Assembly: GCA_030605795.1 (NCBI GenBank)
Contig: JAUWHR010000045.1
Span: forward strand, 3,665 to 67,664
DNA length: 64,000 nucleotides
Source of the DNA: Anaerolineae bacterium
GTDB lineage: Bacteria; Chloroflexota; Anaerolineae; Anaerolineales; E44-bin32
Direction: 5' to 3'
Part shown: positions 10,317 through 42,973 of the stretch, piece by piece
Layout of the letters: each line of letters starts with the position of its first letter
Numbering within the stretch: the stretch's first letter is position 1
Notes under the pieces: generated by a model
The model's input: the letters and a program-made list of their open reading frames with translations, nothing else
Databases searched by the model: none
Told to the model about the DNA's origin: nothing
Made by a program: the position numbers and the translations under genes

Positions 10317-10422
10317 ACTGAAAAATACCCAGCGCGAGAAGGGGAATGGTATGAGTGGGGAGTGGGCTTTGCCAACACCTCACATATATCACCTTTTCCT
10401 GCTGGCGGTTGTTGCTTTCAGT
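10317..10422 (+). repeat. Long-hairpin intergenic repeat, copy 1
   Basis: Shares CACTGAAAAA...GGGAATGGTAT..GTGGGCTTTGCC..CACATATA..TTTCCTGCTGGCGG..TTTCAGT with the copies at 22005, 27746 and 42866. Folds into one extended imperfect hairpin. Confidence 0.85.
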
Positions 10423-10553
10423 AGAATCATGACATCGATTGGTGAAGATCACAGCAGGGGCGGCTGCTTATGACGCCCCCGCTGTATATCCGGTGGGTTA
10501 AGCATCCAGAACATATTACTTATCAGTGCTGGAAAGATGGGTGATAGAGACTT

Positions 10554-12146
10554 TCACTCTATGTCGATTTTATCAGTGAGGTCCATGAACATGTATGGCC
10601 TCCGGTATTCGGAATAATAAATCTTGTCCGGTAGCAACTCATAGCCGCCGCCGAAGTAATGATTGAAAACCACCCTGAAGGAGTTCACCGGTGTGATTGT
10701 GGGATATAACAGCGTTGCGCCAGCATCGGGCAGATAATAGGCGTTCAGAATCGTCATCCGCTGCTGAACATATGAGACGGTAGAGCTCTTTCCATCTGGG
10801 CCATGGTCGGACTGGAGAATGATGATTGGAGGGGTTTTTGATTTCGTCAGGATGGCGTCAATCACCTCCTGCAATCGACTGTTGATATAGATCAACTGCT
10901 CTCGGTAACCTTCAAGGTATTTCTCTGCGCTCTCCGGTTCGTCGCTGGCAAATGTGAACCCTAGTGTGAAAGTCTGATCTGGTATCAAAAGCTGGCCATT
11001 CCGGCCAAAGACAAACGGCGGGTGGGGTGAGATGATGTGAGCGAATACAAATTTAGGCCCCTCGAGATCGGGCAGTTCTTCCAGATGTTCAAAGATGTTG
11101 AGAATCTTGGACTGGTGTAGACGGTAGGGGTATTTCAGGTCTGGAAAGAAGCGTGGAAGAGCGACCGATGTATCGGTAAGGATCAGACCGGCAGAGGTTC
11201 GGATCAGCATCCCCTCGAAGGAATTGGCTGCGCCCAGCCTGACAAGTTCGTCCGCCGACCCGGCGTTGAAGTAGATGTCGGCGTCCAGGATTTCGGTTCC
11301 GCGCAGCCCTGTAGAAAATGCTACGCTCTTGTAGCCGAGGTCTTCAAAGTTCCTGTGGGTTTGACTGTGTTGCAACAAGTTCCATAGTTGGGCGCGGTTG
11401 GTGCTTTCCGTATCGACTTCGTTGATCAGGTTCTGTATGTAATCGAAGTTTAAAGATGAGGTTATGGATAGAGATGACTGTGCATAGTTGGATCGACTGC
11501 CATCGGCAATGTAGAAACCCGCATTCGTAAGGTACTCGATGAAAGGTGTGTTGTCGTAGTGGAAGACCTCTTCGAGGATGTCGGCCCTGGCGTATGCGTC
11601 GACGATGATGTAGTAGACGTCTGGTGGTTCCTCACCCTCCGGGATGCTGAGTTGATTGCTTGGATCGTGTTGGACTGCCGTCACCGGCGACAGGTTGGTG
11701 GTAAATTGAAACTGGTAGGCGGCTATTGTGTAAAGGGGGAGGATGAGGGATGCGATCGCCACGACGTTCAGGAAGGAATTGGCGATCTGGAGCCTTGCTC
11801 GCGTTCGTAGGATCCACCAACTACCCGCGACGGTTAGCGTGATCCACAGCGGGATCAGGTAACGGTGGCGCCCGATGGCAAAACCCAGGTCGACGGATCG
11901 CAGGAGCGAGTAGACATGGCCGTAGGAGAAGAAGGACAACACGAAGAGCGTAAAAATCAGGCTGGCTTTGTCCCAGTATTTGATGAGCAACCTTATGGAG
12001 AGCAGGAGTATGACGGTGCTGATGAGCACGACCAGTAGCGATCTCACTGCATCCGATACAGGGATCCAGTTGATATTGTGTGCCAGGAGGGCGAGGACTG
12101 GATAGACAGCAAATAACAGGGGATGAACAATAAGAATTCGTTTCAT
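10554..12146 (-). CDS. Membrane-anchored sulfatase / LTA-synthase-like (alkaline-phosphatase superfamily) protein
   Basis: 530 aa. About 5 N-terminal TM helices are followed by an extracytoplasmic domain with PDVYYIIVDAYARAD (the metal-binding D-x-x motif context) and ILQSDHGP. Confidence 0.7.
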   Translation of the reverse strand: MKRILIVHPLLFAVYPVLALLAHNINWIPVSDAVRSLLVVLISTVILLLSIRLLIKYWDKASLIFTLFVLSFFSYGHVYSLLRSVDLGFAIGRHRYLIPLWITLTVAGSWWILRTRARLQIANSFLNVVAIASLILPLYTIAAYQFQFTTNLSPVTAVQHDPSNQLSIPEGEEPPDVYYIIVDAYARADILEEVFHYDNTPFIEYLTNAGFYIADGSRSNYAQSSLSITSSLNFDYIQNLINEVDTESTNRAQLWNLLQHSQTHRNFEDLGYKSVAFSTGLRGTEILDADIYFNAGSADELVRLGAANSFEGMLIRTSAGLILTDTSVALPRFFPDLKYPYRLHQSKILNIFEHLEELPDLEGPKFVFAHIISPHPPFVFGRNGQLLIPDQTFTLGFTFASDEPESAEKYLEGYREQLIYINSRLQEVIDAILTKSKTPPIIILQSDHGPDGKSSTVSYVQQRMTILNAYYLPDAGATLLYPTITPVNSFRVVFNHYFGGGYELLPDKIYYSEYRRPYMFMDLTDKIDIE

Positions 12147-12367
12147 TTTTTATAGTTTTGGGTTATTTGAGGCAATTTTACTGGATTTGGATTGGAATTT
12201 CATTGATACTTCATCCTTGGTTGTCGTTCTCGTCGGTTATTTAGATGCGGTCATATTTTATAGCATTCACAGAAACAAGACAAAATAAGGATTATGTCTG
12301 GGCTAGACTGTCCTGCATCATCGTACCCTACATCCTGCGCTTGTACCAGCACTGGTATAATCCCAGC

Positions 12368-13162
12368 ATGTCCTCCCGAGAACGAGTATATCGCACCGAG
12401 GCGGTTGTGTTGCGTCGGCAGGATCTGGGTGAGGCGGATCGCCTGCTGGCGGTCTACTCCTTGGATCGCGGTAAACTACGCCTGATAGCCAAGGGGGTGC
12501 GACGCCCGCGCTCACGTAAGGCAGGTCACTTGGAGCCATTCACCCGGGTGCAATTACTGTTGGCGCGCGGCCGCGAATTGGATATCATCACCCAGGCTGA
12601 AGCGATCGAGATGTACTCTGGTGTGCGAGAAGACTTGATTCACCTCGGTCAGGCAGCGTATGTAGTCGAACTATTGGACCGTTTCACCGTCGAGCGCGAG
12701 GCGAATCAGGCGCTGTATCACCTGCTGGTCCGCACGCTTGAGCGCCTAGTCGCAGGTGTGGAGCCGACAGCGGTCATCCGTTACTATGAATTACGACTGC
12801 TTGATCAGATTGGCTACCGCCCTGAATTGTACCGCTGCTTAGGTTGTGGTGCTGAGGTGCGTCCCCAGGATCAGTTCTTCTCACCGGCTGAGGGTGGAGT
12901 ACTCTGTCCTGACTGCGGTCCGGGACGAAAGGATGCTCAGCGCATCTCTCTCGCCGCGCTCAAGGTTTTGCGTCATTACCAACGCAGCACCTTTGATGTC
13001 GCGACATCGGCGCGGATACGACCGCAGGTCTTCGCCGAAATCGAACAGGTGATGGAGGACTATATGAGTTATCTCCTGGAGCGTAAACTAAATACCCCTG
13101 CATTTCTTCGGCGTGTGCGTCGGATGATGCATGAGAGACTCAAGCCTGACACCGTTGTCTAA
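12368..13162 (+). CDS. recO: DNA repair protein RecO
   Basis: N-terminal OB-fold pattern [21 protein letters not shown]...GKLRLIAKG. Zinc-finger CLGCG...CPDCG. ATG 12368 is preferred over the tracked start at 12245. Confidence 0.85.
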
Positions 13163-13184
13163 AAGAATACCTGAGGGATTGATC

Positions 13185-16184
13185 TTGTCAAAAAAGCCAC
13201 TAATCACTCTGCAATCCGTGATCCTGACACTGCAGCAATATTGGGCTGACCAGGGTTGCGTGATCTGGCAACCATACCACACGGAAGTCGGGGCTGGAAC
13301 TATGAACCCGGCGACCTTTCTACGTGTCCTCGGTCCGGAACCATGGTGGGTGGCTTATGTTGAACCCTCCATCCGACCCACCGACGGCCGTTATGGTGAG
13401 AACCCCAACCGGTGGCAACATTTTTACCAGTTTCAGGTGATCTTGAAGCCAGATCCAGGTGACCCGCAGGAACGCTATCTTAAATCGCTGGTGGCGCTTG
13501 GTATCGATCCTAGCGAGCACGACATCCGTTTTGTAGAAGACAACTGGGTAGCCCCAGCGCTGGGCGCCTGGGGTTTAGGCTGGGAGGTCTGGCTGGATGG
13601 GCAGGAGATCACTCAGTTCACTTATTTTCAGCAAGCAGGCGGACAGACGCTCGACCCGGTATCGGTTGAGATAACCTACGGTCTGGAACGAATCTTGCTA
13701 GCTGTACAGGGGGTGGATAGCTTTATCGACATCCAGTGGAACGAGCAACTCACCTATGGCGACATTTATTTAAAGGCTGAGCAAGAGCACAGCCGTTACA
13801 ATTTTGAGGTGGCAGATATCGAGCGGCTACGGGTTATGTATGACGAGTTTGAGGCGGAAGCTGAGGGTTGCTTGGCAGCTGATTTAGTGCTTCCTGCGCA
13901 TGATTACGTTCTTAAATGCTCCCACACCTTCAATCTTCTCAACGCACGCGGCGCGGTTGGGGTCACCGAGCGAGCCGCTCTCTTCGGTCGCATGCGGGAT
14001 CTGGCACGACAGGTTGCCGAAGCTTACCTGGCCGAGCGTGAAGCGTTGGGATATCCATGGCGAGAATATTGGCAAATCTTTACGCCCGAGTTGCCTCAGG
14101 TGCGTGAGGAAATCCCGCCTCCCGAAGCACCGGCACCCTTCCTGTTGGAAATCGGCACCGAAGAGCTGCCGGCGGGTGATCTAGACACTGCTTTGGAGCA
14201 GTTGCCCAAGCTGGTTGATCAGATGCTGGTTGATAGCCGGCTTGATCATGGGCAGGTTCGGGTAATGGGCACCCTACGAAGGCTGGTGGTCTATGTTGAT
14301 GACCTAGCTCCTATGCAGACAGAGCAGGTAACGCTGGTGAAGGGGCCACCGGCTGATCGCGCCTTCGACGACGAGGGTAATCCCACGCCTGCGGCGGAAG
14401 GCTTTGCTCGTAGCAAAGGGGTCTCGGTGGAAGAGCTGGAGGTAATTGAGCAGGATGGTGGACGGTATGTAGTAGCCGAGGTCCGCCAGCCAAGTCTGCC
14501 GGCCGATGAGGTGTTGTGCGAGATGCTTTCCGCCTTAATCGCCAATGTGGTTTTTGAGAAATCCATGCGATGGAATCAGACCGGAGTGATCTTTTCCCGC
14601 CCGATCCGGTGGCTTCTGGCGCTCCACGGGGAGCATGTTGTTCCATTTGAGTATGCTGGGCTGAGGACTGGTCGTACTACGCGTACCCTTCGCTTTGATG
14701 ATTCTGAGATGCAGAACGTAGCCAACCCGGAGGCTTATTTCGAGGCACTTGAGGGGAGGGGGATCCTGTTGGAGGTCGAGGTGCGCAAGGCGTCGATTGA
14801 GGAGCAGATTGCGCAATTGGCCAAGGAGGTCGGGGGTGAGGTGCCCGGCGACCCGAGGTTGCTAGCTGAAGTTGCCAACTTGGTCGAGAAACCGACCGCG
14901 CTGCGGGGGAGTTTTGATAAGACCTTTCTCGACCTGCCGGGGCAAGTATTGATCTCGGTGATGAAAAAGCACCAGCGTTGCTTCCCAGTACAGCGGGATG
15001 GCGAGTTACTTCCATATTTTATCGCCGTGCGTAATGGCGGAGCAGAGCATCTGGAGGTGGTGACCCGGGGCAACGAGCATGTCATCCGGGCTCGTTTTGT
15101 AGACGCGGTTTATTTCATTGATCGTGACTTACAGCAGCCATTGGAATCCTATCTGCCTAGGCTAGCCACAATGACCTTTCAGGCCAGTCTGGGCTCGATG
15201 CTGGATAAGGTCGAGCGGGTCGAGCATTTGACTGCAATCCTGGCGGATGATTTAGGTTTGAGCCCTCAGGAAAAGCAGTTCGCCCTACGAGCGGCGCACT
15301 TATCGAAGGCTGATTTGGCGACGCAGATGGTCGTCGAGATGACCTCCCTGCAAGGGGAGATGGGTCGTGAGTACGCGCAGCGATCGGGTGAACCGAGTGA
15401 GGTAGCCGAGGCGATCTTTGAGCATCATCTTCCTCGTTTCGCAGGGGATCGTCTCCCTCAATCCCAACCGGGGTTGGTGGTCGGTGTAGCGGATCGATTG
15501 GATACATTGATGGGGCTATTTGCCGCTGGGTTGCGATCGACCGGCGCCGGTGATCCGTTTGCCATGCGCCGGGTTGCGATTGGCTTGGTGCAGATGCTCA
15601 TAACAAAGAGTATTCGTTTTGACTTGCGCTATGGGTTGAAGCAAGCCGCGGTGGGTTTACCAATCGAAGCGGCGAATGATTCGGCGGAAGCATGCCTGAG
15701 GTTCATCGTCGCCCGACAGCAAGCTCACCTGCTGAGCGAGAGCTATCGGTACGATGTGGTTGAAGCTATTCTGGCTGAGCAGGGTCACGACCCGGCTGGC
15801 GCCGCGCAAGCCGTGGAAGCCCTCCAGCAGTGGGTGGAGCGGGATGATTGGCCTGAAACCCTCCAGGCTTATGCCCGTTGCGTTCGGATCACACGTGACG
15901 AGACCGTAGTACATACTCTTGACCCCGACCGTTTGGTTGAGGGGGAAGAACGGCATTTGTATGCTGCGCTTCAAGCGGCTGAGGGCACATCATGTACCTC
16001 GGGATCGATAGATGATTTCGTCTCCACCTTTCGGCTCATGATCCCCGCGATTAGTACTTTTTTTGATGAGGTCTTGGTTATGGATGAGGATCAGAACCTT
16101 CGCGCCAATAGGTTGGGATTATTGCAGCGAATTGCTGCTTTAAGTGGTGGGGTAGCTGACCTATCGAAGTTAGAAGGTTTCTAG
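13185..16184 (+). CDS. glyQS: Glycine--tRNA ligase, fused alpha+beta chain
   Basis: The alpha part reads [51 protein letters not shown]. It continues in frame into a ~700-aa GlyS-like beta part. TTG 13185 sits 6 nt after GAGGGA; the tracked ATG 13131 would overlap recO. Confidence 0.9.
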
Positions 16185-16312
16185 GTTGTTAGTTGATCGG
16201 TGCAGTGCTAAAGAGCAGAGCGACAGGAGTTGCTCCAGATATAGCCGGGGGCTATAATCTACCCCCCCCACATGTGATCAGCCATCACAGACTCGTTCTC
16301 AACCGGCAAAGG

Positions 16313-18265: not shown

Positions 18266-18271
18266 GGAAGG

Positions 18272-19843: not shown

Positions 19844-19852
19844 ATTCTTTCT

Positions 19853-21664: not shown

Positions 21665-21760
21665 GTCTTACTCCTTGTCAAAATCGTTTCCTTTAGAGGG
21701 CGAAAATCGATAAAGATCCACAATTCGGAAACACGTCGCGCTTCTCCAACTCAGCTCGTC

Positions 21761-21976
21761 TTATGAGTCAAGAACAACCACATCCTCTGCTCGAGGGCCT
21801 TTAGGTCCCTCGGAGACGATAAATTCCACTTTCTGACCCTCGTCTAACGATTGAAAACCCGAATCGCGAATAGCGCTATGGTGCACAAAAACGTCTCCCC
21901 CTACATCGCGCTCGATGAATCCATAACCTCTTGAAACGTTGAACCACTTGATCGTGCCAGTTTCGCGCTCTGCCAT
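21761..21976 (-). CDS. Cold-shock protein (CspA family)
   Basis: GTIKWFN..RGYGFI (RNP1) and DVFVHHSAI (RNP2). 71 aa. Confidence 0.92.
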
Positions 21977-22004
21977 TGTAAACTCGCCTCCTTAATAATT
22001 AAAG

Positions 22005-22114
22005 TACTGAAAAAAGCTCAAATGCAAGAAAGGGAATGGTATATGTGGAGTGTGGGCTTTACCCACACTCCACATATACCCCTCTTTCCTGCTGGCGGCT
22101 GTCTTTTTAAACAG
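22005..22114 (+). repeat. Long-hairpin intergenic repeat, copy 2
   Basis: Apical stem GGTATATGTGGAGTGTGGGC-TTTA-CCCACACTCCACATATACC. The lower stem pairs GCAAGAAAGGG with CCCTCTTTCCTGC. Begins 29 nt upstream of the csp start codon. Confidence 0.85.
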
Positions 22115-22346
22115 ACTCAATAATACATTCCTTTGTGGCAGATCGTTCCGAAGCGACTTCAGATATGAGACTCATCATCTGAATAAGAACGGCTGCCAGC
22201 AATGAACGCACTCTAGCATGGCCTGAGGTTTGTGTCAACGCTGGATGAAATGGTAGAAAGGTCCCCAACGGCTTACCGGGTCATTGGGTAAGCAGCCAGC
22301 TTGTTGTATAGTTGGGAAGGTGAGGAGACAATATTGGAGAAGGAAA

Positions 22347-22640: not shown

Positions 22641-22645
22641 TCTTC

Positions 22646-23226: not shown

Positions 23227-23325
23227 CTGTTTAACCCTCTTGGTTGATGGTTACTGGGAATTGTTATATGCTCTAGTTGGAGTGTAGGGTCGATAGGGAA
23301 TATTGCATGTAGCACCCCCTTTAGG

Positions 23326-24264: not shown

Positions 24265-24289
24265 AATGAAAGGCATAGCTTGATCGCCA

Positions 24290-25757: not shown

Positions 25758-27704
25758 ATGTTAGAAATCCGCTTGCTTGGGGAATTCGACGTTCGTCTAG
25801 AAGGGCAACCGATCGAGATCCCTTCGCGCCCGGCGCAGTCGCTACTGGCTTACCTTGTTCTAAACGCAGAAACCCGTCATCGTAGGGAGAAGTTAGCAGG
25901 TTTGCTGTGGCCGGAATCGGAGGAATCCAACGCCCGCAGCAACCTGCGCCACGCGCTGTGGCGACTCCGTAAGGCGATCGGGGAGAAGTATTTTCTCGCT
26001 GATAAAGTTTCCATCGCTTTCATACCCACCGAAGATTGCGAACTCGACGTCTCTTACTTTGGAGATGAGAGGACTGAGACGGAATCGACCATGGATCTGA
26101 TCCGCGAAGTCTCCGTCTACGGGGGTGAACTCCTACCAGGCTTCTACGAAGGCTGGGTTGTTTTGGAACGAGAACAGCTGCGAGCTACTTTTGAGCATAC
26201 GATCCAGAGGCTGTTAGATTTGTTGATTGAAAAGCAGTCTTGGTTGGAGGTCCTTGAATGGGGAGAGCGGTGGATCGCGACGGGATATGTGCCTGAGCCC
26301 GCATACCGAGCATTGATGATCGCGTATCGCGGTCTGGGGGATTCCTCAGGGGTGGCTGCGGTATACCAGAGATGTTGTGAAGCGCTACACAGCGAGTTGG
26401 GTGTCGAGCCGTCGGAACAAACGCGGTCGATATTTGATAGGCTCTCCAAAGGTGGAGAGCCCTCGGTGGTTGCACGAGTTTACCCAGAAAGAGAGAGGGT
26501 TGATGCCTCAGTAGACGCGGTAAGGATGCTGCTTAAGCACTGGCGGCAAAAGGGTGTGAAGATTTTGGATCTGGCTAGCCTAGCTATGGTTTATGCTGCC
26601 AGGCCGGATGACCCGTTTGACCCAGAAGATGCTGCTTTGCTTATCCGTAGTGCACTACAGCACGAAGTCGATATTGAACCGTGGCTTAAGCGCGCTGGCT
26701 CACCGCAGGTCGTGGTGGCAACACTAGATGAAGTATTAGGCACATATCCAAAGCCTCGGATTAGGAAGAGGATCGTCCAAGCGCTTAAAGGCTTGGAGTA
26801 CGAGGAAGTGGATAATGTATTGCTGCATGTTGTCGAGAGTGACGATTCGGCCGAGATCCGGGCCGAAGCTGCGGTGACACTTGCCCAAAGGGGAAAACAG
26901 GATGTTGTAGTAGAACTTTTGCTGGACCAGATAAACTTAAGTGATAATGCAGCGGCAATTGCGGCTTTCGTTGCGGTTGTTGATGAAGTGGGTCTCTCCA
27001 AGGAGGTTGGTCCTTATCCCAAGCTCCCCGTCCTAGCAGCGCTTGCCGAGAGGCGTTGGAAAGATGGACGGCGATTGCTATTGAGGCAGGTGGGGCGGGT
27101 AAGCCTTGGGGCGGTAATCATATCCGCTTTGCATGGCAGCGCCGCGCCATTCTATATAGCACTCTCGCTTCCAGATAGTTATCACGATACGCTACAAGTT
27201 CTATCTCTACCCACATGGATGCTCAGTGGAGCCCTGGGTATGATGCTAATCGGTGGGGCTCAGGGTTTGGCTTCCAGTTTCGCAATTGGATTGGCCGATG
27301 TTTTCTTGAGGGGTCGAACGCGGAGATTCTGGCGCCATATACTAGGAAGTCTGGCGGGTTTAGCTCACGCTGGATTTCTCATTGTATATACGATAATGGG
27401 TAATATGGAACCCACGTCTGAGTCCACAGTTTATATATCTGTATGCGTTTTTTATAGTTTACTTCTTGGTGCTGCGTTGTCGATTGTCTTTCCGCAACTC
27501 GGGACTTCATCCTCTACTCGGCAACAACTCAAACGCGCGGCGTGGGGGGCGGCAGCGGCTGCCCTGGCGACGACCCCATATGTCATTGGCTATCTATTTT
27601 ACTTTAGCGAGGCCCCAGGCACGGTACCGGAACGCCTGGTATTTTCAATCTTACTTACACTGGGGATCGCGCTCGCACTTAGAAATCCTGGCGTAGAAAT
27701 CTAA
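25758..27704 (+). CDS. SARP-family (OmpR-type wHTH + BTAD) regulator fused to HEAT-like repeats and a C-terminal ~6-TM domain
   Basis: The N-terminus reads LEIRLLGEFDVRLEGQPIEI..RPAQSLLAYLVL......REKLAGLLWPE....ARSNLRHALWRLRKA. BTAD reads ..YRALMIAYRGLGD...AAVYQRC...L..ELGVEPS..T. The middle has DDSAEIRAEAAVTLAQRG (HEAT-like). The last ~210 aa contain six hydrophobic helices. Confidence 0.75.
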   Translation: MLEIRLLGEFDVRLEGQPIEIPSRPAQSLLAYLVLNAETRHRREKLAGLLWPESEESNARSNLRHALWRLRKAIGEKYFLADKVSIAFIPTEDCELDVSYFGDERTETESTMDLIREVSVYGGELLPGFYEGWVVLEREQLRATFEHTIQRLLDLLIEKQSWLEVLEWGERWIATGYVPEPAYRALMIAYRGLGDSSGVAAVYQRCCEALHSELGVEPSEQTRSIFDRLSKGGEPSVVARVYPERERVDASVDAVRMLLKHWRQKGVKILDLASLAMVYAARPDDPFDPEDAALLIRSALQHEVDIEPWLKRAGSPQVVVATLDEVLGTYPKPRIRKRIVQALKGLEYEEVDNVLLHVVESDDSAEIRAEAAVTLAQRGKQDVVVELLLDQINLSDNAAAIAAFVAVVDEVGLSKEVGPYPKLPVLAALAERRWKDGRRLLLRQVGRVSLGAVIISALHGSAAPFYIALSLPDSYHDTLQVLSLPTWMLSGALGMMLIGGAQGLASSFAIGLADVFLRGRTRRFWRHILGSLAGLAHAGFLIVYTIMGNMEPTSESTVYISVCVFYSLLLGAALSIVFPQLGTSSSTRQQLKRAAWGAAAAALATTPYVIGYLFYFSEAPGTVPERLVFSILLTLGIALALRNPGVEI

Positions 27705-27745
27705 ACAGCTTCAAATCCGCGAATTTAGGTTTCCAATGGTTGAGT

Positions 27746-27855
27746 GCACTGAAAAAAAAACTACCCGCGCGGAGTGGGGAGGGATATAGGTGCGGGCGCA
27801 GCCCGCGCCCCCACATATATCCCGGTCCTCTTCTTGCGGTTGACCCTTTTTCAGT
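27746..27855 (+). repeat. Long-hairpin intergenic repeat, copy 3
   Basis: CACTGAAAAAAAAA...GGGATATAGGTGCGGGCGCAGCCCGCGCCCCCACATATATCCC...CCCTTTTTCAGTG. The terminal inverted CACTGAAAAA/TTTTTCAGTG is intact in this copy. Confidence 0.85.
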
Positions 27856-27901
27856 GGATTAATTGTAATAATCCTGCATCATAATAAGGAGGCTTGTTTC
27901 G

Positions 27902-28117
27902 ATGAATGATAAATCACGATGGGGCAAAGTCGCTCAGTTGATTGACGATGCGCTAGCGGATGAGTCTCTGAGGAAGAAATTACAAGAGGGGAGTCGTGAG
28001 GAAAAATTGGAGATTCTTACCGAACGAGGTTTCACCGAGGAAGATAGAGTGAACCTCGAAAAAGACCTTCAACTGCTCACCCCGGACGCGAGTGCCGCGA
28101 TAAGATTTTGGCTCTAA
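27902..28117 (+). CDS. Nif11-like leader-peptide-domain protein (candidate RiPP/pheromone precursor)
   Basis: Strong SD AAGGAGG. KVAQLIDDALADESLRKKLQEG..EEKLEILTERGFTEEDRVNLEKDL follows the Nif11/NHLP leader pattern. The short tail TPDASAAIRFWL ends the protein. Confidence 0.65.
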   Translation: MNDKSRWGKVAQLIDDALADESLRKKLQEGSREEKLEILTERGFTEEDRVNLEKDLQLLTPDASAAIRFWL

Positions 28118-30708: not shown

Positions 30709-30780
30709 AGGGATCCCCGGTTTGATATGAGTCCAGCCAAGCGGCCGGGTGGTTCATTGTACCTTAAACACCGAGGTTCA

Positions 30781-31242
30781 TCAGGTGGAGCGAGGAGTTG
30801 TGTACCAGGAGGCAGCACCTGCCAGGCTCGCAGCCGCGGCGACAAGGGTCGGAACCAGCGCCTGGGTGGTCAGAGATAAGCTGAAACCCCAAAGGGCGGA
30901 TAGGGCCATCGTGGCAGCGAAATATCGGTGTCTGAAGGCGCGTTGCCAGACAACCTTTGGGATCCAGATAGGTTGGATGGCGCTCAGAGCGGCTACGGTC
31001 AGTCCCGTTCCCATCAGAATAAGGCGACCCAGGAGCGACCATTCCGGGTAGCTAAGGACCAGGATTGAAGCCGGAAGGAAGAGCAACAAACCGTGCGCAG
31101 CTGCCAAATCACGGTCGAGTGTTTGGCGGTGGATGGGCCAAGTGTGCCTAAGTAAAACGCCCATGACGCCACTGAATCCGAGGTAAAGCGCCGAAACGCC
31201 AAGCCACAAAGTTATATTTAAGAGCAACATTGCAACCCTCAT
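30781..31242 (-). CDS. Hypothetical polytopic membrane protein
   Basis: 153 aa with 4-5 hydrophobic helices. Same strand as rnz, directly upstream of it. No recognisable motif. Confidence 0.45.
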   Translation of the reverse strand: MRVAMLLLNITLWLGVSALYLGFSGVMGVLLRHTWPIHRQTLDRDLAAAHGLLLFLPASILVLSYPEWSLLGRLILMGTGLTVAALSAIQPIWIPKVVWQRAFRHRYFAATMALSALWGFSLSLTTQALVPTLVAAAASLAGAASWYTTPRST

Positions 31243-31337
31243 AGATCAAGTCCGAGATCGACTTAGGGTGTGCAAGTTGTGTGCCTAAGCGGGGTTATAT
31301 AAATCCAGGTTTGTTTGAGTGATCGTGGCGATATCTT

Positions 31338-32429: not shown

Positions 32430-32526
32430 GGGGGGGATTATACCCTAATTGCTGTTCTTGACGGTGGTTGGGATGGGGTGGTAAGATGCAGTGCTCTCCC
32501 CTTTGTGATTAGATTTATTAAATACG

Positions 32527-33798: not shown

Positions 33799-33819
33799 TA
33801 GCCTAAATGTGAGTATGCG

Positions 33820-35475: not shown

Positions 35476-35500
35476 CATGCTCCCTGCTTTTAGGTAAACT
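35472..35500 (+). promoter_or_regulatory. Sigma-70-type promoter of groES-groEL
   Basis: TTGACA (35472-35477), 17-nt spacer, TAAACT (35495-35500), immediately upstream of CIRCE. Confidence 0.6.
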
Positions 35501-35511
35501 TGCGGAGCAAT

Positions 35512-35538
35512 TTAGCACTCACGAGTGGAGAGTGCTAA
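35512..35538 (+). promoter_or_regulatory. CIRCE operator (HrcA binding site)
   Basis: Perfect TTAGCACTC-N9-GAGTGCTAA, 52 nt upstream of the groES start. Confidence 0.92.
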
Positions 35539-35589
35539 ATTGCAATGCATATCCGAATTGTATCAATCTAATGTATGAGGAGGGTCCGA

Positions 35590-35886
35590 ATGTCACTCAA
35601 GCTCAAACCGTTAGCCGATCGACTGGTTGTCAAACCTCTTGAAGGGGAGGAAGTGACGCCGAGCGGCATCGTGCTGCCCGAAACGGCGAAGGAAAAGCCA
35701 CAGAAGGGTGAAGTTTTGGCTGTGGGACCGGGCGCCCGCAACGATGAAGGCGAGCGGGTTGCCATGGATGTGTCTGTTGGGGATAAAGTCCTATTCGCCA
35801 AGTATGGAGGGACTGAGATCAAAATCGATGACGACAAGCTGCTCATCCTACGGGAGAGCGACATCTTGGCAATCATTGAGGACTGA
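35590..35886 (+). CDS. groES: Co-chaperonin GroES
   Basis: LKPL.DR.VVK..E.E..T.SGI.LP..AKEKPQ.GEV.AVG.G. SD GAGGAGG before ATG 35590. Confidence 0.93.
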
Positions 35887-35953
35887 TGTCGCCAGTATTT
35901 AGACCATTGAAACCTGAGAGAATTATAAAAAACTTATTAGGAGCAAGTGAGCA

Positions 35954-37585
35954 ATGACTGCAAAGCAACTCGCATTCTCAGAGGATGCACGGAGGCGCCT
36001 AAAAGCTGGCGTCGATATACTAGCCACTGCAGTGGCTACTACTCTCGGCCCGAAAGGCCGCAACGTGGCTCTCGACCGCAAGTTCGGTTCCCCCACTATT
36101 ACCCATGATGGCGTGACGGTGGCGAAAGAGATCGAATTAGAAGACCCATTTGAGAACATGGGAGCTCAACTGCTTAAGGAGGCTGCCACTAAGACCAATG
36201 ACATCGCCGGAGACGGCACAACCACCTCAACCGTGTTAGCCCATGCTATCGTGACCAACGGTATAAAAAGCTTGGCTGCAGGCTCCAATCCAATGCTGCT
36301 CAAACGCGGCATCGAGGCGGCTGCTAAGGCTGCTTCTGAGGCCATCGACAAGCAGTCAATTGAAGTCACTACCAAGGAGGAGATCGCCTCGGTTGCCGCC
36401 ATCTCCGCCCAGGACCGCGAAATCGGCGAATTGATCGCTGAGGTGATGGACAAGGTCGGCAAAGACGGGGTGATCACGGTCGAGGAGTCCAAGGGATTGG
36501 AATTCGAGACGGAATACGTCGAAGGCATGCAATTTGACCGTGGCTATATCTCACCATACTTCGTCACCGATCCGGAGCAAATGGAGGCGGTGATCGAGGA
36601 ACCGTACGTCTTGATCCACGATAAGAAGATTTCAGCCGCGACCGACATCGTACCCATTCTGGAAAAATTGGTTCAGGTCGGCAAGCGCGAGCTCGTCGTG
36701 ATCGCTGAGGATATTGACGGCGAAGCGCTGGCGACTCTGGTCCTCAACAAGCTGCGCGGCATGCTCAACGTGGTGGCGGTTAAGGCTCCTGGTTTCGGCG
36801 ACCGCCGTAAGGCTATGCTGCAGGACATCGCCATCTTAACCGGTGGCACGGTCATCACAGAGGAATTGGGTCGCAAACTAGAGTCGGTCACCATCAACGA
36901 CTTGGGTAAGGCTGGCAAAGTGGTGGTCAATAAAGAAGACACCACCATTATCGAGGGTTCGGGTAAAACCGAGCGTATCAAGGGTCGAATCGAGGAGATC
37001 AAGGTTGAAATCGATCGATCGACCAGCGATTACGACACGGAAAAGCTCCAAGAGCGGCTGGCGAAGCTCGCCGGCGGCGTGGCTGTGATCGGAGTCGGCG
37101 CAGCTACTGAGACCGAGCTCAAGGAGAAGAAGCACCGCGTCGAGGATGCCCTCTCAGCCACACGAGCGGCCGTCGAGGAGGGCATTGTCCCTGGGGGTGG
37201 CGTGGCGCTGATTAATGCCTTAAAATCGATGAAGAAGCTCAAGATGGACGATGATGATGCGAATATTGGCGTCAAAATCGTGCGCGAGGCTCTCGAGATG
37301 CCAATGCGGGGCATCGTTGAGAACGCCGGTAAGGACGGCGCAGTAGTAATTGAGACGGTCCGCCGCAAGCAGATCGAGGAGAAGAACAAGAATATCGGCT
37401 TCGATGTGCTCAAAGAGGAGTACGTTGATATGTTGGAGGCGGGGATAGTCGATCCGGCCAAGGTCACCAAGGGTGCTCTACAGAATGCCGCATCAATCGC
37501 GGCTATGATACTGACCACTGAGGCGCTGATCACTGACATACCCGAGCCTGAAGCGTCCCCTATGCCGCCAATGCCCCAATACTAG
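35954..37585 (+). CDS. groEL: Chaperonin GroEL
   Basis: [36 protein letters not shown], and a C-terminal Met/Pro-rich tail. Confidence 0.97.
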
Positions 37586-37607
37586 TAACTGGCGGTAGGA
37601 GTGTGAG

Positions 37608-37641
37608 ATCAGCCCCTCGGTTTGGAGGGGCTGATTTGATT
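37608..37641 (+). terminator. Rho-independent terminator after groEL
   Basis: ATCAGCCCCTC-GGTTTG-GAGGGGCTGAT followed by TTGATT. Confidence 0.7.
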
Positions 37642-37710
37642 CCTATCGGATTGCGACCAGTTTGCTGTCACGCTATCTGGCACAAGCAACGGCATAATTG
37701 GTGAAGGGTC

Positions 37711-37890
37711 TCAGATATACCTAGTGACGATGAACCATACGATCGCCGCAATCGCCAAGAGAGAGATGCATCCGCAGGTGAAAAAGCGGGTTGTAAACCG
37801 GAGCAAGAACTTTAGAACAATCCAGATGATCCCCAGGCCCACTAAGATCAGAGCAGCGTGTAGAAGATTAAAGCCATCCGGAAGAGCCAT
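37711..37890 (-). CDS. Small (59 aa) two-TM membrane protein, absent from the ORF track
   Basis: The ATG is preceded by GAGGAGG at a 5-nt spacing. Translation: MALPDGFNLLHAALILVGLGIIWIVLKFLLRFTTRFFTCGCISLLAIAAIVWFIVTRYI. Confidence 0.5.
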   Translation of the reverse strand: MALPDGFNLLHAALILVGLGIIWIVLKFLLRFTTRFFTCGCISLLAIAAIVWFIVTRYI

Positions 37891-38122
37891 AGGACCTCCT
37901 CTTCTTCTTGTGTATATACAATCTTACCCTTTTTATAGTTCTTGATACAAGATTGGTGCCAAAGCGATAAACTAGGCGTCGGTAATCAGGTGCTTCCAGG
38001 AGCACCAGGTCGGCCCGCTTTCCGGGTTGTAGGCTTCCCACTCGGTCAGCCCGAGTGATAGCCGCGTCCGTGTTGATGCGCTTGTCAGGCGCAGTATGTA
38101 TGCATCCGAGGTTCCTGATCAT
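37868..38122 (-). pseudogene. C-terminal fragment of an imidazolonepropionase-like amidohydrolase
   Basis: ..INTDAAITRADRVGSLQPGKRADLVLLEAPDYRRLVYRFGTNLV matches the HutI-type C-terminus. No catalytic core lies upstream of it. Confidence 0.55.
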
Positions 38123-39356
38123 TCTCTACACTTTCCGCATGGGCTACCGAAAGTGGATCGGTTCTGCGGGTGGCTGAATCGAGGACCCGGAGCAGTTTGG
38201 GAACGAACCGGTAAGGAACGGCGCCGGCCGACGCTTGGTCGACGGTACCGCAGAGTAACAGGTCTAGCTCCGGGCAGTAGAATAACCAGGAACCGGTCGA
38301 GCCGGTGTGACCGATCACCGCCGGCATCGGATGCAGCGGCGTGAACACGCGCGGCAAACGGAAGCGCATCATTCCCAGACCATACTCAATTGGCCAACCG
38401 GGCGAGCGCAGCGCTGCCGGGTCGAGTGCGAAGCCGAAGCGGTTCCAGCGTTGTTGCATCAGGGCGAGCGTCGCCGGTTCGTCGAAGGCCTCACCACGGA
38501 GGAGCGCGCGCAAGAAAGCCAGGCTGTCCTCGGCCGTACTGTAAACGCTCAGGAACGAATGTAGCGCCAGCGGGAGGTTCAGTGGCTGATCGTCAAACCA
38601 GAGCGTCGCCGGCTCGGGCGTGGGTTCGAGCGGCTGGGAATGGCCGAGAAGATAGGTATGTTGCAGATCCAGGGGACGAAACAGCAACTCCTCGAATGCC
38701 TGGTGTAGTGGCTGCGCGGTCACTGCTTCGATGATGGCGGTGAGCAACTGATAGTTGGTGTCAGAATAGCGTGTCTTCTGTCGCTTCGCGTCGACAGGCT
38801 GCGGTGGGAAATGCGGGGTCAGCTCGTCGCGGACGATGCGGACCAGGTCGTCGATGGTCCACGCCATGTCCCCCTCGTAAAACAGCCGCTCCATCAGGCT
38901 CCGACCACCTTTGGGGCGGTCCTCGAAGCAGTCCGCCAGGCCGGAGGTGTGGCCGAGCAGGTGCCGGACCGTGATCATGTCGGTGTAGTCGACTCCATCA
39001 AGGCGGTGTAGCCCGCTGAACAGCGTCTGCGGGAGGTAGTTCGAGATGGGCTCGTCGAGACCGACGTGGCCACGTTCGTGCAGCTTCATCACGATGGACG
39101 CGGTATATAGCTTGTCGATGCTCGCGATGTGAAAGGGAATGTCTGCCCGCATCGGCGTGCCGTCCGGGTTCGCGTCCCCCGCGGCACCGAACCAGCGGAA
39201 GTCCCTGTCATCGCTCTCGACGGCGACGATGGCGTGTTTCACCTGTTTCTTCGACATGAGGTGCCGCAATAGATCTTGCAGGCGCTCGGCGGCACCACCT
39301 GCCCCTGCAGTCGGTCCACCTGCCCGCACCGGCTTCGTCTGATCATCTAAAGGCAT
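38085..39356 (-). CDS. Beta-lactamase-family serine hydrolase (class C / esterase type)
   Basis: SxxK motif in FHIASIDKLYTA, YSDTNY (Y-x-N). 423 aa. GC is markedly higher than the flanks, with many shadow ORFs in the track. Confidence 0.8.
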   Translation of the reverse strand: MPLDDQTKPVRAGGPTAGAGGAAERLQDLLRHLMSKKQVKHAIVAVESDDRDFRWFGAAGDANPDGTPMRADIPFHIASIDKLYTASIVMKLHERGHVGLDEPISNYLPQTLFSGLHRLDGVDYTDMITVRHLLGHTSGLADCFEDRPKGGRSLMERLFYEGDMAWTIDDLVRIVRDELTPHFPPQPVDAKRQKTRYSDTNYQLLTAIIEAVTAQPLHQAFEELLFRPLDLQHTYLLGHSQPLEPTPEPATLWFDDQPLNLPLALHSFLSVYSTAEDSLAFLRALLRGEAFDEPATLALMQQRWNRFGFALDPAALRSPGWPIEYGLGMMRFRLPRVFTPLHPMPAVIGHTGSTGSWLFYCPELDLLLCGTVDQASAGAVPYRFVPKLLRVLDSATRRTDPLSVAHAESVENDQEPRMHTYCA

Positions 39357-39549
39357 CTACACTTCCTCCGGAGAACAGTGTTTTCAATGGTGTCTTCCCT
39401 TCCAAGTGCAACCACACTGGAACTGAACTTGAAGCTGATTGCGCCTAATTATTATTTAATGGCTCATCGTTGTTTTGTATGGGTAGAGTACACAAATGAC
39501 GTTTCGAGTGCAACCAAGGATTGCTTTTCCGCCGTCCGTTGATTTGCTA

Positions 39550-39771
39550 TCATCTTGCGGAGTTCTGTTGGTCTGTGGTCGGGGTTGTAGTCTCGGCCCT
39601 CGTTCCGATTGGGAGGATGTCCTCACCAGTGATCGCCACGGCGCTATATTCGATAAGTTCTAATTTTCCAAGGTCTGGCCCTCGTTGAGGACTACCGGTC
39701 AGGGTCAAGATCTGAGCTGCAGGGTGGATCAGGAGGTCAGCCTTCATGAATCGCTCCCTGATTGAAGACAT
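39550..39771 (-). pseudogene. N-terminal fragment of the same imidazolonepropionase-like amidohydrolase
   Basis: ADLLIHPAAQILTLTGSPQRGPDLGKLELIEYSAVAITGEDILPIG matches the HutI-type N-terminus. The frame ends after ~58 homologous aa. Confidence 0.55.
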
Positions 39772-40087
39772 GCGAGGTTATATTCAGCCTGTACACTCGC
39801 GATAATTACTCTGAGTATGTCGAAATCCCAGCAAAAGTGATGGTTCCATTGGTAAACACCAATTAGCTCCGCTTGCGTGTCGATTTGCGTCTGATCAAAT
39901 TTAACTTTCTTTATGGGGTGGTATTAAACTTTTACATAAAACAGTCGGTGAAAGGACCAATTTGGCTAGCAATCGAAAATGAGGTATTATTCAGGTATAT
40001 GAAATAGTATTCAAATACATGAAAAATTTAATAAACCTTTCACCATTCTCCGGCGCTTCATGCAACGATGACGATCGCTCATAAGGT

Positions 40088-40867
40088 ATGTGTTTGATGA
40101 CCAAATTGGTGAAATCATCGGCGCGCACACTGGATATTCTTGAGCTTATCGCTGCTCATCCAGGCGAACTAGCGCTTTCAGAAATAGCTAAAAAATTAAT
40201 GATCCCTATAAGTAGTATGCACGGGCTCGTCCTCACACTCAAGACTCGAGGATACTTAGTTCGCGATCCCGCATCTCTCTGCTATCGAATGGGTCCAAAG
40301 TTTGCTCAATTAGCTGTAGTTCATGGCACCTTGGTTGAATTAATTGCTCATGTTGCGCCTGTTATGGATCGGATAGGGACTGCTTGTAAAGAAGCGGTCA
40401 CTATGTCCGTTCTTCAAGGAGACAAGATCGTTTTTATCAGCAATCGACCGGCCACCTCCATTGTGCAGGCAGTAAATGCTATAGGCACTAGTCTTCCCGC
40501 CCATGCGACTGGGTCGGGGAAGATTATGCTCGCCTATCTAACCGATGAGGAATTCGAACGCACCTACCCCAATAACAAGCTACCTCGGTTAATGGCCAGT
40601 ACTATCAGCACGAAAGTTGAACTAAAGCAGGCTGTCCTCGAAGCGAGACGGAGGGGCTACGCCTACGATGATGAGGAATCAGAGAGAGGTGTTTGGGCGG
40701 TTGCTGGCTGTATCAGAAACTCCGTTGGCAGACCTATGGCTGCCCTATCCGTCGTTGTGCCGGTCATTCGTGTCCAGGCGAATGATATTCCGTATTGGAC
40801 AAGCCTCGTCGTCGAAGGTGCGGCAGAGATAAGCTCCAAACTCGGTTTTGTATCTAGCACAGAGTGA
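40088..40867 (+). CDS. IclR-family transcriptional regulator
   Basis: N-terminal wHTH (SSARTLDILELIA......LSEIAKKL.IP.SS.HGL..TL...GYL). C-terminal IclR effector domain pattern (..G...A..L...). Confidence 0.85.
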   Translation: MCLMTKLVKSSARTLDILELIAAHPGELALSEIAKKLMIPISSMHGLVLTLKTRGYLVRDPASLCYRMGPKFAQLAVVHGTLVELIAHVAPVMDRIGTACKEAVTMSVLQGDKIVFISNRPATSIVQAVNAIGTSLPAHATGSGKIMLAYLTDEEFERTYPNNKLPRLMASTISTKVELKQAVLEARRRGYAYDDEESERGVWAVAGCIRNSVGRPMAALSVVVPVIRVQANDIPYWTSLVVEGAAEISSKLGFVSSTE

Positions 40868-40931
40868 GGAAAAGGTCTACCCCTTCTTCCCTGACCAGTT
40901 TAATGGGGGTAGGCATTAAGGACGATAAGCT

Positions 40932-41624
40932 ATGAGACATTGGAACAGGATTGGGTTGCTGGTGCCATCCAGCGATACTGTCATGGAGCCGGACTTATGG
41001 CGGCGGCTTCCTCCCCAGGCCTCTATCCATGTAGCCAGGATGTACCTAGAAGACACAACCGTGGCTGGGGAAGAGAAGATGCTGCTTGAGGAACTGGCGC
41101 CGGCAGCGCGTAGGCTGGCTTCCATCAATCCTGAGTTGATCATCTTTGGTTGCACCTCAGCTGCAGCTTTACACGGTATGGATGGTGATGCAGCCATAGC
41201 AAATCGTGTGCAGGAAATTACTGGATGCGACGCAATTACATTGACCCAGGCTTCGATAAGTGAAATCAAGAAGCTTCAGGTAAAGCGATTGTTCCTTTTC
41301 ACACCCTATGTTGCTGAACTAACCGAGCGACTGGCAAATACTTTTAGAGAAGCCGGGTTGCCCGTGATTGGATCGGAAGGCCTGGGTCTGGATAACGATC
41401 TCGCTATTGCGGCCGTATCTCCTGAAGAAATCCGGGATTATGTGGCTGCTGCAGTAAAACGCTGCCACCTACATCCTGATGCCGTGTTTGTTTCTTGTAC
41501 GACTTTCCGCGCCTTTGATGCGGTGGAGGCAATTGAAAGGGAGCTCGGCATCCCGGTGGTGACCAGCAATCAGGCTGCGTTTGAATTTCTTCTTCACCAT
41601 CTTAGTCTTGAAAAGCACGAATGA
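40932..41624 (+). CDS. Asp/Glu/hydantoin racemase-superfamily protein (maleate isomerase / arylmalonate decarboxylase-like)
   Basis: RIGLLVPSSDTVMEPD, ..IIFGCTSAA and ..VFVSCT: two Cys-containing motifs typical of the family. Confidence 0.7.
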   Translation: MRHWNRIGLLVPSSDTVMEPDLWRRLPPQASIHVARMYLEDTTVAGEEKMLLEELAPAARRLASINPELIIFGCTSAAALHGMDGDAAIANRVQEITGCDAITLTQASISEIKKLQVKRLFLFTPYVAELTERLANTFREAGLPVIGSEGLGLDNDLAIAAVSPEEIRDYVAAAVKRCHLHPDAVFVSCTTFRAFDAVEAIERELGIPVVTSNQAAFEFLLHHLSLEKHE

Positions 41625-41665
41625 AGCAGTCGCAGGAACATGGCTGCCTGTAAAGGGACCTGGAA

Positions 41666-42841
41666 ATGGCGAACACGAAGAGGTATGTGCTTGATGAAAA
41701 AGGGTTGTTGGATTCAGTGCGGGAGGAATCGGTCGTCAAACTTTTACAGAAGGTCATCCGAATAGAGAGTACCAATCCGCCTGGAAACGAGCTGGACCTG
41801 GCCAAGATGCTGGCGGATTACTTTACAAGAGCGGGGCTTGGACCCGAATTGTTGGAGTATGAGGTGAAGCGAGCCAATTTGATCACCCGCATACCTGGGA
41901 CAGGAGAGCGACCGGGCTTGATCTTTAGTGCTCATATGGACACCGTACCAGCCGGAGAAGTGCCATGGATGTTTCCGCCCTTCTCAGCAACCCTACATGA
42001 GGGAAGGATCTACGGTCGAGGAGCGGCTGACATGAAAGGCGGCTTAGCGGCCATGACGGAGGCAATGGTAATCCTGGCCCGAAAAGGTTTCTCGCCAAAG
42101 GGAGATCTTATTGCAGCCTTCACCTATGATGAAACACATGGACTTCAAGGGGCAAAGCGGTTGGTGGAGGAAGGGCACCTGGAGGGCGCCGGGGCGGTGT
42201 TGATAAGCGAACCCAGCACCTTGGAGGTGTTTGTTGCGGAGAAGGGGGCTCTATGGCTCAGGTGTCGGGCGGAGGGAAGGACGGGTCATACATCCATGCC
42301 ACACCTGGGTCAGAATGCCATCTTTGAGATGACCCGCTTTTTATGTCGACTCGAAGCGGAATTGGACATCAGCACCCATGAGCATTCTCTGCTTGGGACC
42401 GCTACCTTCACAGTGGGCACAATCCAGGGAGGGGTGACCATCAATGTTATCCCCGACGCTTGTGAAGCAGAAATAGATATTCGCCTTGTTCCTGGGCAGG
42501 ATTATCAGGATGTCATCCTGAAAGTGCGGGATTTAGCTGGGGAAGGTGTATCGGTTGAGTTGATTGATTGGAAGGAGCCGGTGGAGAGCGACTCTGAGAC
42601 GGACATCGTTAAACTCGCACTGGCGGTTGTCCAGGAAATCACTGGCCAACCGCGCTCCCCCAAGGGGGTGGCTTACTACACCGACGGCGCGATTTTAGCG
42701 AATCGTCTCCAAATCCCTATGGTCAACATCGGCCCTGCCGACACTGGCATGACGCACCAACCAAACGAAAATGTCGAGGTTGAACGTCTGGTGCAAGCGG
42801 TCAAGATTTTCTTGCTGATCGCTAACCGGTACCTTACCTAA
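41666..42841 (+). CDS. M20-family metallopeptidase/deacylase (ArgE/DapE/YgeY-like)
   Basis: SAHMDTVP, GRGAADMKGG and ..DEE/DET.. metal-ligand motifs. 391 aa. Confidence 0.8.
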   Translation: MANTKRYVLDEKGLLDSVREESVVKLLQKVIRIESTNPPGNELDLAKMLADYFTRAGLGPELLEYEVKRANLITRIPGTGERPGLIFSAHMDTVPAGEVPWMFPPFSATLHEGRIYGRGAADMKGGLAAMTEAMVILARKGFSPKGDLIAAFTYDETHGLQGAKRLVEEGHLEGAGAVLISEPSTLEVFVAEKGALWLRCRAEGRTGHTSMPHLGQNAIFEMTRFLCRLEAELDISTHEHSLLGTATFTVGTIQGGVTINVIPDACEAEIDIRLVPGQDYQDVILKVRDLAGEGVSVELIDWKEPVESDSETDIVKLALAVVQEITGQPRSPKGVAYYTDGAILANRLQIPMVNIGPADTGMTHQPNENVEVERLVQAVKIFLLIANRYLT

Positions 42842-42865
42842 TTGCAGGTGGGTAATGATGACTGA

Positions 42866-42973
42866 ACTGAAGAAAGCCAACGTGCTAGCAAGGGAACAGT
42901 ATATATGGGGTTTGGGCTTTGCCCACACCCCACATATACTCCCTTTTTCCCACTGGCAATTGCTTTTTTCGGT
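42866..42973 (+). repeat. Long-hairpin intergenic repeat, copy 4
   Basis: ..CTGAAGAAAGCCAAC..AGCAAGGGAACAGTATATATGGGGTTTGGGCTTTGCCCACACCCCACATATACTCCCTTTTTCCCACTGGCAATTGCTTTTTTCGG. It overlaps the spurious N-terminal extension of the tracked ORF 42905. Confidence 0.85.

Follow-up and report, generated by a model that had tools for sequence, protein, structure and literature searches.

The window analysed here, a whole stretch of 64,000 nucleotides (nt) from an uncultured Anaerolineae bacterium (Chloroflexota), has a G+C content of approximately 52% and a GC skew that stays positive, and the majority of its genes are on the plus strand. Look-ups of exact proteins and scans for DNA patterns group it with uncultured Anaerolineae that are known from metagenomes alone. 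Among the core functions it encodes are an oligopeptide ABC transporter, a GlmU-like transferase, cytidine deaminase, RecO, a fused GlyQS, DnaG, a sigma-70 factor, a B12-radical-SAM protein, a cold-shock protein, GroEL and enolase. The window also contains four related hairpin repeats of approximately 120 bp, which are very probably old members of a miniature inverted-repeat transposable element (MITE) family of uncultured Anaerolineae, with stem changes attributed mainly to template switching. The four copies are listed below together with the target-site duplication that borders copy 2; coordinates are those of the 64-kb window, with its first letter as position 1, and strands give the orientation in the frame of subfamily B of this family.

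10311 to 10428, minus strand (weakly supported): copy 1, subfamily A, degenerate, with 19 differences from the A consensus
21994 to 21999, no strand: left target-site duplication AATAAT of copy 2, a direct repeat at the element end
22000 to 22118, minus strand: copy 2, subfamily A (covariance model 78.2 versus 48.8 bits; hidden Markov model (HMM) 62.9 versus 47.7 bits)
22119 to 22124, no strand: right target-site duplication AATAAT of copy 2, a direct repeat at the element end
27742 to 27861, plus strand: copy 3, subfamily B (covariance model 75.8 versus 43.9 bits)
42860 to 42979, minus strand: copy 4, subfamily A (covariance model 64.9 versus 43.8 bits)

The original prediction had placed four related intergenic repeats in this region, and both their relationship and their positions are borne out. 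A pattern of the bases common to all four copies, ACTGAARAA..GGGANNNNTAT..CACATATA, matched the window four times, against 0.00 matches expected from 100 dinucleotide-preserving shuffles, and a covariance model of 116 family members, run over the full window with filters off, returned these four copies and nothing further above noise. Each copy forms one long hairpin (folding z of -3.7 to -8.5 relative to shuffled sequence, plus strand), and the inverted ends run to GAsTsCACTGAAAAAA, a few bases beyond the extents first described. A mechanical open reading frame (ORF) at 42905-44782 overlaps copy 4; however, homologues of 585-590 amino acids place the start of this flavoprotein at 43010, so the overlap is artefactual and copy 4, like the other three, is intergenic. 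Two further claims on shared features held only in part. The inverted ends are indeed related, but the exact pair CACTGAAAAA/TTTTTCAGTG occurs in copy 3 only, and the lower stem with its AATG bulge is found in copies 1 and 2 and loosely in copy 4, but not in copy 3, which belongs to the other subfamily. The apical stems differ between copies and yet remain complementary, as had been noticed, that of copy 2 being a perfect 19 bp (22038-22056 paired to 22062-22080).

Copy 1 lies between the convergent genes cdd (9677-10120, plus strand) and a gene for a protein of 530 amino acids (10554-12146, minus strand). Its covariance-model score is 52.9 bits on the minus strand versus 41.2 on the plus strand, with a near tie in the subfamily HMMs, and its flanks, TAATGT on the left and ATGACA on the right, contain no recognisable target-site duplication. 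An identical copy was found in loci L142 and L143. Two GC-rich terminator-like hairpins flank copy 1, one at 10176-10197 after cdd and one at approximately 10455-10485 after the 530-amino acid gene on the opposite strand, and copy 1 therefore lies between the apparent ends of two convergent transcripts. A truncated subfamily B arm (L038:840-880) was observed approximately 120 nt past the stop of a distant homologue of the 530-amino acid neighbour; this shared neighbour may reflect chance, a hot spot or an ancient insertion common to both.

Copy 2 is located between the divergent genes csp (21761-21976, minus strand), encoding the cold-shock protein, and acylphosphatase (22284/22347-22640, plus strand), and its site is occupied in L001-L008, L037 and L129, i.e. 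in every relative retrieved. Copy 3 begins 38 nt past the stop of a BTAD-domain regulator gene (25758-27704, plus strand) and ends 41 nt before an ORF of 71 amino acids (27902-28117, plus strand); its left apical arm is shortened, and it has 21 differences from the B consensus. Copy 4 is situated between genes for an M20 peptidase (41666-42841, plus strand) and the FAD-binding flavoprotein (43010-44782, plus strand), and it occupies the same site in relatives with flavoproteins 98% and 87% identical, so that its insertion is old. Within the window a perfect target-site duplication is present in copy 2 only. The flanks of copy 3 (ATGGTT/ATTGTA) and copy 4 (AATGAT/TCTGAT) match at four of six positions each, and the L049 orthologue of copy 3 has a perfect ATGGTT duplication. 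With 17-21 differences from the consensus of their own subfamilies, the window copies are old and partly decayed members of the family.

The family is widely dispersed outside the window. A pattern scan of one-genome-per-species bacterial and archaeal contigs gave 12 loci, of which 11 were true elements in metagenome-assembled genomes (MAGs) of Anaerolineae/Anaerolineales as classified in GTDB, the match in L017 being judged a chance one. At least 120 matching stretches were found in metagenome contigs; the same scan of viral contigs gave no match, nor did blastn of the family consensus against plasmids. In total 125 distinct full copies were obtained, among the matches listed, from Anaerolineae MAGs and sediment metagenomes, and the covariation alignment comprises 116 family members. 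The elements are 118-122 bp in length, with a consensus of 121 bp (GAGTGCACTGAAAAAACTACCCTCGAGGAGtAGGGAGGGGTATATGTGGGGGTGCGGGCgcaGCCCGCACCCCCACATATACCGGTCCTCTTCTCGCGGTTGACCTTTTTTCAGTGGAGTC), and the family has no coding capacity, as only mechanical ORFs overlap the elements. Two subfamilies can be distinguished, B with approximately 105 copies, including window copy 3, and A with approximately 13-17 copies, including window copies 1, 2 and 4. In agreement with the original prediction, which did not recognise a described motif, no Rfam family corresponds to the element, and a literature search on MITEs in Anaerolineae or Chloroflexi found no prior description within the limits of the library searched.

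Copies are solitary rather than clustered, and incomplete forms also exist. Solo arms are present at L038:840, L063:3288, L029:996 and L092:4495, and two short derivatives of 76 and 81 bp (L099:165-240 and L114:11043-11123, respectively) have lost the apical stem while keeping both inverted ends. In L036:4048-4160 the apical hairpin is shortened, both inverted ends are kept, and the element is bordered by a perfect ACCCTT flanking repeat. Chimeras were identified as well: L002, L005, L007 and L132 combine a B left arm with an A right arm, and L031 combines an A left arm with a reversed B arm. Three of these chimeras (L002:1501-1650, L005:2384-2533 and L007:1-70) are orthologues of window 21984-22133, the copy 2 site, where the csp-proximal half was swapped for a B-type arm plus 9 bp and the distal half and the flanks are unchanged; the same arm combination in L132 occurs at another locus. 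Several metagenome contigs end inside or directly beside an element (L006-L008, L009, L145, L146), as expected from a high-copy repeat that breaks assemblies. The B left arm GGGGAGGGGTATATGTGGGGGTGCGGG (e.g. L097:2301-2421, minus strand; partly window 27775-27800) carries a canonical G-quadruplex motif, four G-runs with loops 1, 7 and 3 nt long, which is present on one strand only and absent from the opposite arm.

The original prediction offered a MITE or an element of the repetitive extragenic palindrome (REP) type, and it is the first of these that the structure of the copies supports. The 16-bp terminal inverted repeats, GAGTGCACTGAAAAAA at the left end and, read as its reverse complement, GACTCCACTGAAAAAA at the right, match each other at 14 of 16 positions, and over 116 copies their conservation is at least 90%. 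Target-site duplications were looked for and found in abundance, with a perfect flanking direct repeat of 6 bp in 40 copies and of 7 bp in 22 copies (62/125 in total) and a repeat with one mismatch in a further 27, whereas random pairing of one copy's left flank with another's right flank gives only approximately 1.1 perfect repeats. Compared position by position, the left and right flanks have an identity of approximately 0.6 for precisely six positions, and at the seventh the value is that of the background (0.26). The duplications fall on AT-rich targets of consensus A-T-N(2-3)-A-T; whenever an end base of the duplication is neither A nor T, as in GTATAT, TGATAT and CTTCATT, it departs from the consensus on both sides, and these end bases therefore belong to the duplicated target and not to the element. 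Copies with an intact duplication are nearer to the consensus than those without (median of 10 versus 13.5 differences, p = 0.026), as would be expected if duplication and sequence both decay with age. The family thus bears the marks of a MITE, namely terminal inverted repeats, a target duplication of characteristic length, small size, no coding, many dispersed copies, the truncated, deleted and chimeric derivatives usual in transposon decay, and no preferred orientation, and on its sequence features this assignment is supported.

All copies were originally thought to share one polarity, which is not upheld, the element being nearly palindromic. The A consensus aligns better to the reverse complement of the B consensus (score of 67 with two single-base gaps) than to B itself (score of 54 with more gaps), and reciprocal HMMs agree: a B-only model gives the reverse orientation the higher score for 11 of 13 A copies, and an A-only model does so for 104 of 112 B copies (by a median of 10 bits). 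Arm scores based on few copies had failed to orient A relative to B, which the consensus alignment and the reciprocal HMMs later did. On this sequence comparison, subfamily A is the reverse complement of subfamily B in homology. In the B frame, copies 2 and 4 plainly run in reverse, and copies 1 and 3 are near ties, being too decayed individually. Across the family no orientation bias was detected relative to either local GC skew (40:45) or the direction of flanking tandem genes (19:15), and the 69 copies with a classifiable gene context comprise 34 tandem, 24 divergent and 11 convergent cases. The apparent single polarity is thus an artefact of palindromy and of a sample of four; it lends no support to a strand-specific mechanism, and the null strand-bias tests remove the idea of mobilisation as single-stranded DNA and that of a dedicated terminator. 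An outward hybrid promoter formed by a conserved TTGACC, 16-17 nt from the right end, and the AT-rich target was also considered; it is unsupported by the orientation data and amounts to speculation.

In the 116-copy alignment of the stems 93.1% of the cells pair, and pairing falls to 38-59% when the partner column is slid. Double changes that keep the pair were found in 91 cells versus 37 in shuffles, with none of 500 shuffles reaching the observed value, so the stem changes are compensatory beyond chance. Apical stems of approximately 20 bp are perfect in 76 of the 125 copies. The loops, however, occur as reverse-complement pairs (GCA in 38 copies and TGC in 32, GTA 7 and TAC 5, ACA 5 and TGT 3, TTT 6 and AAA 3), and both loop orientations are found at approximately 1:1 on every common stem and outer-arm haplotype, orientation being independent of haplotype. 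Such inversions are found between orthologous copies in different assemblies: L019:695-811 and L133:1961-2077 are identical over 317 nt save for the loop, GCA versus TGC, and three of the seven differences in 298 nt between L021:103-220 and L042:4324-4441 are the same GCA/TGC inversion. An exact GCA/TGC loop flip also distinguishes the orthologous copies of L010 and L093. Among one-sided changes in the apical stem, wobble cells (39) are not enriched relative to unpaired cells (59), which argues against filtering at the RNA level.

The in-place flips and the balanced loop orientations point to template switching within a DNA hairpin, for which no RNA selection is needed. Template switching is described as giving both multi-base compensatory changes and inverted loops (PMC8794818). 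We infer that the covariation is mainly a DNA-level by-product of the palindrome and not evidence for a selected RNA. The proposal that the hairpin is under selection for pairing is therefore not needed to account for the compensatory changes, as the loops flip at orthologous sites and stand at approximately 1:1.

According to the MITE explanation, a DDE-type transposase encoded elsewhere would bind the 16-bp inverted repeats GAGTGCACTGAAAAAA and GACTCCACTGAAAAAA and insert the element at AT-rich A-T-N(2-3)-A-T sites via a staggered cut, the repair of which would duplicate 6 or 7 bp of the target. The long internal hairpin, with an apical part of approximately 20 bp that is usually a perfect palindrome, would then serve as its own template: intramolecular template switching, or hairpin-templated correction, in DNA replication or repair may copy one arm onto the other, and the 3-nt loop would be inverted as a side effect of this arm copying.

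Several observations weigh against this explanation or limit its reach. Neither the window nor 0.85 Mb of related loci yielded an autonomous element bearing these inverted repeats, a Pfam scan of approximately 40 window ORFs detected no transposase, all of them being housekeeping genes, and in the related loci there were no pairs of inverted ends 0.6-4 kb apart outside the MITEs themselves. Orphan inverted-repeat ends in the same 0.85 Mb did not reveal a parent insertion sequence (IS) either, and the variable duplication of 6 or 7 bp gives no IS family assignment. With regard to empty sites, all orthologous loci retrieved were occupied, in a sample that favoured occupied sites and the nearest relatives; a search of all loci by k-mers for joined flanks gave nothing, and exact-protein look-ups with the genes flanking copies 1, 3 and 4 returned the same strain or occupied sites only. 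Transposition is thus deduced from structure rather than observed, since neither an autonomous element nor an empty site was found, and template switching is likewise inferred from the sequence patterns. All family sequences are from metagenome assemblies. Moreover, the chimeras show that exchange between copies does occur, and the observed patterns could owe something to ectopic gene conversion or to selection for a hairpin that is recognised at the DNA level. Two sets of candidates were rejected: the ORFs adjoining the truncated copies in L063 and L038, considered as a parent transposase, are host genes, and L151, considered as an empty site, differs in synteny.

The strongest competing account, although an unlikely one, is that of a MITE whose palindrome is kept by selection, since a transposase or host protein recognises the hairpin or cruciform, and whose flips and chimeras are made by ectopic gene conversion. 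The chimeric copies (L002, L005, L007, L132 and L031), which show exchange between copies, speak for this account, as does the faster divergence of elements relative to their flanks at orthologous sites (4.9% versus 2.2%); in addition, the lower stem keeps a constant asymmetry, so that homogenisation is limited to the apical part. However, uncommon stem haplotypes also show flips, one example being the short G-run shared by L019 and L133, where the remainder of 317 nt is unchanged, and the conversion tract from a donor would need to be at most approximately 19 nt. As for selection on the hairpin, derivatives without the apical hairpin (L099:165, L036:4048) keep their inverted and flanking repeats, which hints that the apical hairpin is not needed, although these deletions could postdate insertion.

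Somewhat less plausible still is an orphan MITE whose palindrome is rapidly renewed by hairpin-templated copying and whose hairpin is required by the transposase or has been co-opted as an RNA hairpin, e.g. in the 5' untranslated region (UTR) of csp. The evidence for it would be a flip-flop of the loop in equilibrium at approximately 1:1 inside natural populations. If true, this would offer a natural system in which to watch template-switch 'compensatory' evolution locus by locus. On the main explanation, too, copy 2 is probably located in the csp 5' UTR, and this case involves one feature outside the element, given here as context:

22210 to 22238, minus strand: promoter-like site, TTGACA-17-TAGAGT, with TG before the second hexamer

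This site, a strong sigma-70-like match, is located approximately 90 nt beyond copy 2 on the csp strand, in a stretch (22120-22346) that is approximately 99% conserved among orthologous loci, and the csp-side end of copy 2 is 8 nt from the csp Shine-Dalgarno sequence. If the promoter-like site is used, copy 2 would lie with its entire hairpin within a csp 5' UTR of approximately 225 nt. Under the MITE explanation, individual copies may thus affect neighbouring genes, but only incidentally.

It is considerably less probable that the family represents a structured RNA, i.e. a small RNA or a cis-acting mRNA hairpin with a stabilising, terminating or regulatory role, whose stems are held by selection on RNA pairing and whose copies spread or persist because of that function. 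The strong folds and the covariation above both shuffle and slide controls would suit such an RNA, as would the positions of copies 3 and 4 just past gene stops and that of copy 2, which lies between the promoter-like site and the csp ribosome-binding site, is kept in all relatives and has an apical hairpin that scored as terminator-like on both strands. On the other hand, the copies favour neither strand of the adjoining genes (19:15), 24 of the 69 with a classifiable context are flanked by divergent genes, a position in which a terminator would serve no purpose, and the inverted repeats and duplications indicate dispersal by transposition. A DNA-level process fits both the inverted loops and the finding that single changes give unpaired cells more often than wobble cells, and part of the covariation between copies of a single mobile element is simply inherited. 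At the Rfam gathering score only a tRNA was found in the window, with no match to the elements, and at E <= 1 the elements matched generic microRNA hairpins only, at a sub-threshold 24-32 bits versus cut-offs of 60-103. A bidirectional intrinsic terminator, which would have a GC-rich stem with a U-tract immediately behind it and a place downstream of genes, is at odds with the 24 of 69 divergent contexts and the absence of orientation bias; copy 3 received no terminator-like call, and in copy 2 the apical stem is followed by no more than a weak T-rich tail.

A REP/REPIN-type doublet mobilised as single-stranded DNA by a REP-associated tyrosine transposase (RAYT; Y1/HUH), or an IS200/IS605 derivative associated with a palindrome, is scarcely credible: a hairpin of approximately 110 nt is comparable in shape to REP doublets, the copies are intergenic and multiple, and the apparent single polarity would have suited a strand-specific mechanism, but HUH/Y1 transposition (IS200/IS605, RAYTs) leaves no target-site duplication and the idea is largely refuted by the perfect 6-7-bp duplications in 62 of 125 copies, while orientation shows no bias against GC skew (40:45), single polarity fails, the copies are solitary, and neither a Y1 transposase domain nor a cognate RAYT/TnpA-Y1 transposase, which had been put forward as a possible partner, was present among the approximately 40 window ORFs scanned against Pfam. 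An IS200/IS605-derived palindromic element, which would lack both inverted repeats and a duplication and would insert in an orientation set by the replication strand, is likewise at odds with the inverted repeats, the duplications and the 40:45 orientation.

Bacterial MITEs that fold into long hairpins include the Correia elements of Neisseria, RUP of Streptococcus pneumoniae, Nezha of cyanobacteria and ERIC/IRU of enterobacteria. The Anaerolineae family resembles these in being non-coding and 100-160 bp long, with terminal inverted repeats and the whole element forming a long imperfect hairpin, and it shares with them copy numbers in the tens to hundreds at intergenic sites, a division into subfamilies, chimeric copies and, possibly, an occasional influence on nearby transcripts. 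It differs in the lack of sequence similarity, in its host, uncultured Anaerolineae, and in that no parent IS was found. Correia, RUP and Nezha are IS630-type elements that duplicate TA, whereas the Anaerolineae family duplicates 6-7 bp at A-T-N(2-3)-A-T. To our knowledge, a perfect apical palindrome of approximately 20 bp with loop orientations at approximately 1:1 has been reported for none of Correia, RUP, Nezha and ERIC. REPIN/REP sequences are likewise intergenic multi-copy hairpins of similar overall length with stems that evolve and yet stay paired; however, they have no target-site duplication and no transposon-type inverted repeats, are associated with a RAYT gene and are often clustered, whereas the Anaerolineae copies have duplications and are solitary, with no RAYT among the window ORFs scanned.

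Template-switch (quasi-palindrome) mutation has been described for RNA hairpins (PMC8794818) and for human mutation clusters (PMC5453318), and its multi-base compensatory changes, perfect stems and inverted loops are all three present in the Anaerolineae family. Those studies infer rare events, in phylogenies of RNA genes, whereas here the signature extends over more than 100 paralogous copies belonging to a single mobile element and also appears between near-identical orthologous loci, and loop orientation is apparently at equilibrium in this family.

Other features of the window do not belong to the repeat family. A single ORF of 1017 amino acids (13131-16184) joins the alpha and beta subunits of glycyl-tRNA synthetase, and a tRNA gene (7852-7922) is the sole Rfam match in the window at gathering score. 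Just upstream of an ORF of 103 amino acids (35575-35886) and of GroEL (35954-37585) is an inverted repeat, GCAATTTAGCACTC-N9-GAGTGCTAAATTGC (35507-35543), which gave a weak chance match to the hairpin covariance model and which contains the CIRCE/HrcA operator consensus, TTAGCACTC-N9-GAGTGCTAA. A near-perfect palindrome, AAATTGTCAACAGTA / TATTGTTGACAATTT (50871-50901), beside a gene for a GntR/FCD-family regulator (50033-50716, minus strand) may be the operator of that regulator.

As a MITE, the element is routine; with it, an uncultured and little-studied lineage, the subsurface Anaerolineae, gains a family of mobile elements. It also explains assembly breaks at such sites, as contigs end inside the element (L006-L008, L009, L145). 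The methodological lesson may be of wider use: the covariation is clear by the usual tests, yet DNA-level copying can generate it, and since the loop inversions reveal such a DNA-level source, covariation alone would mislabel repeats of this kind as structured RNAs. With more than 100 paralogous copies and near-identical orthologous pairs, the family provides an unusually clean natural data set for template-switch mutation in bacteria, and the flip-flop of its loop is the single feature of the family worth following further.

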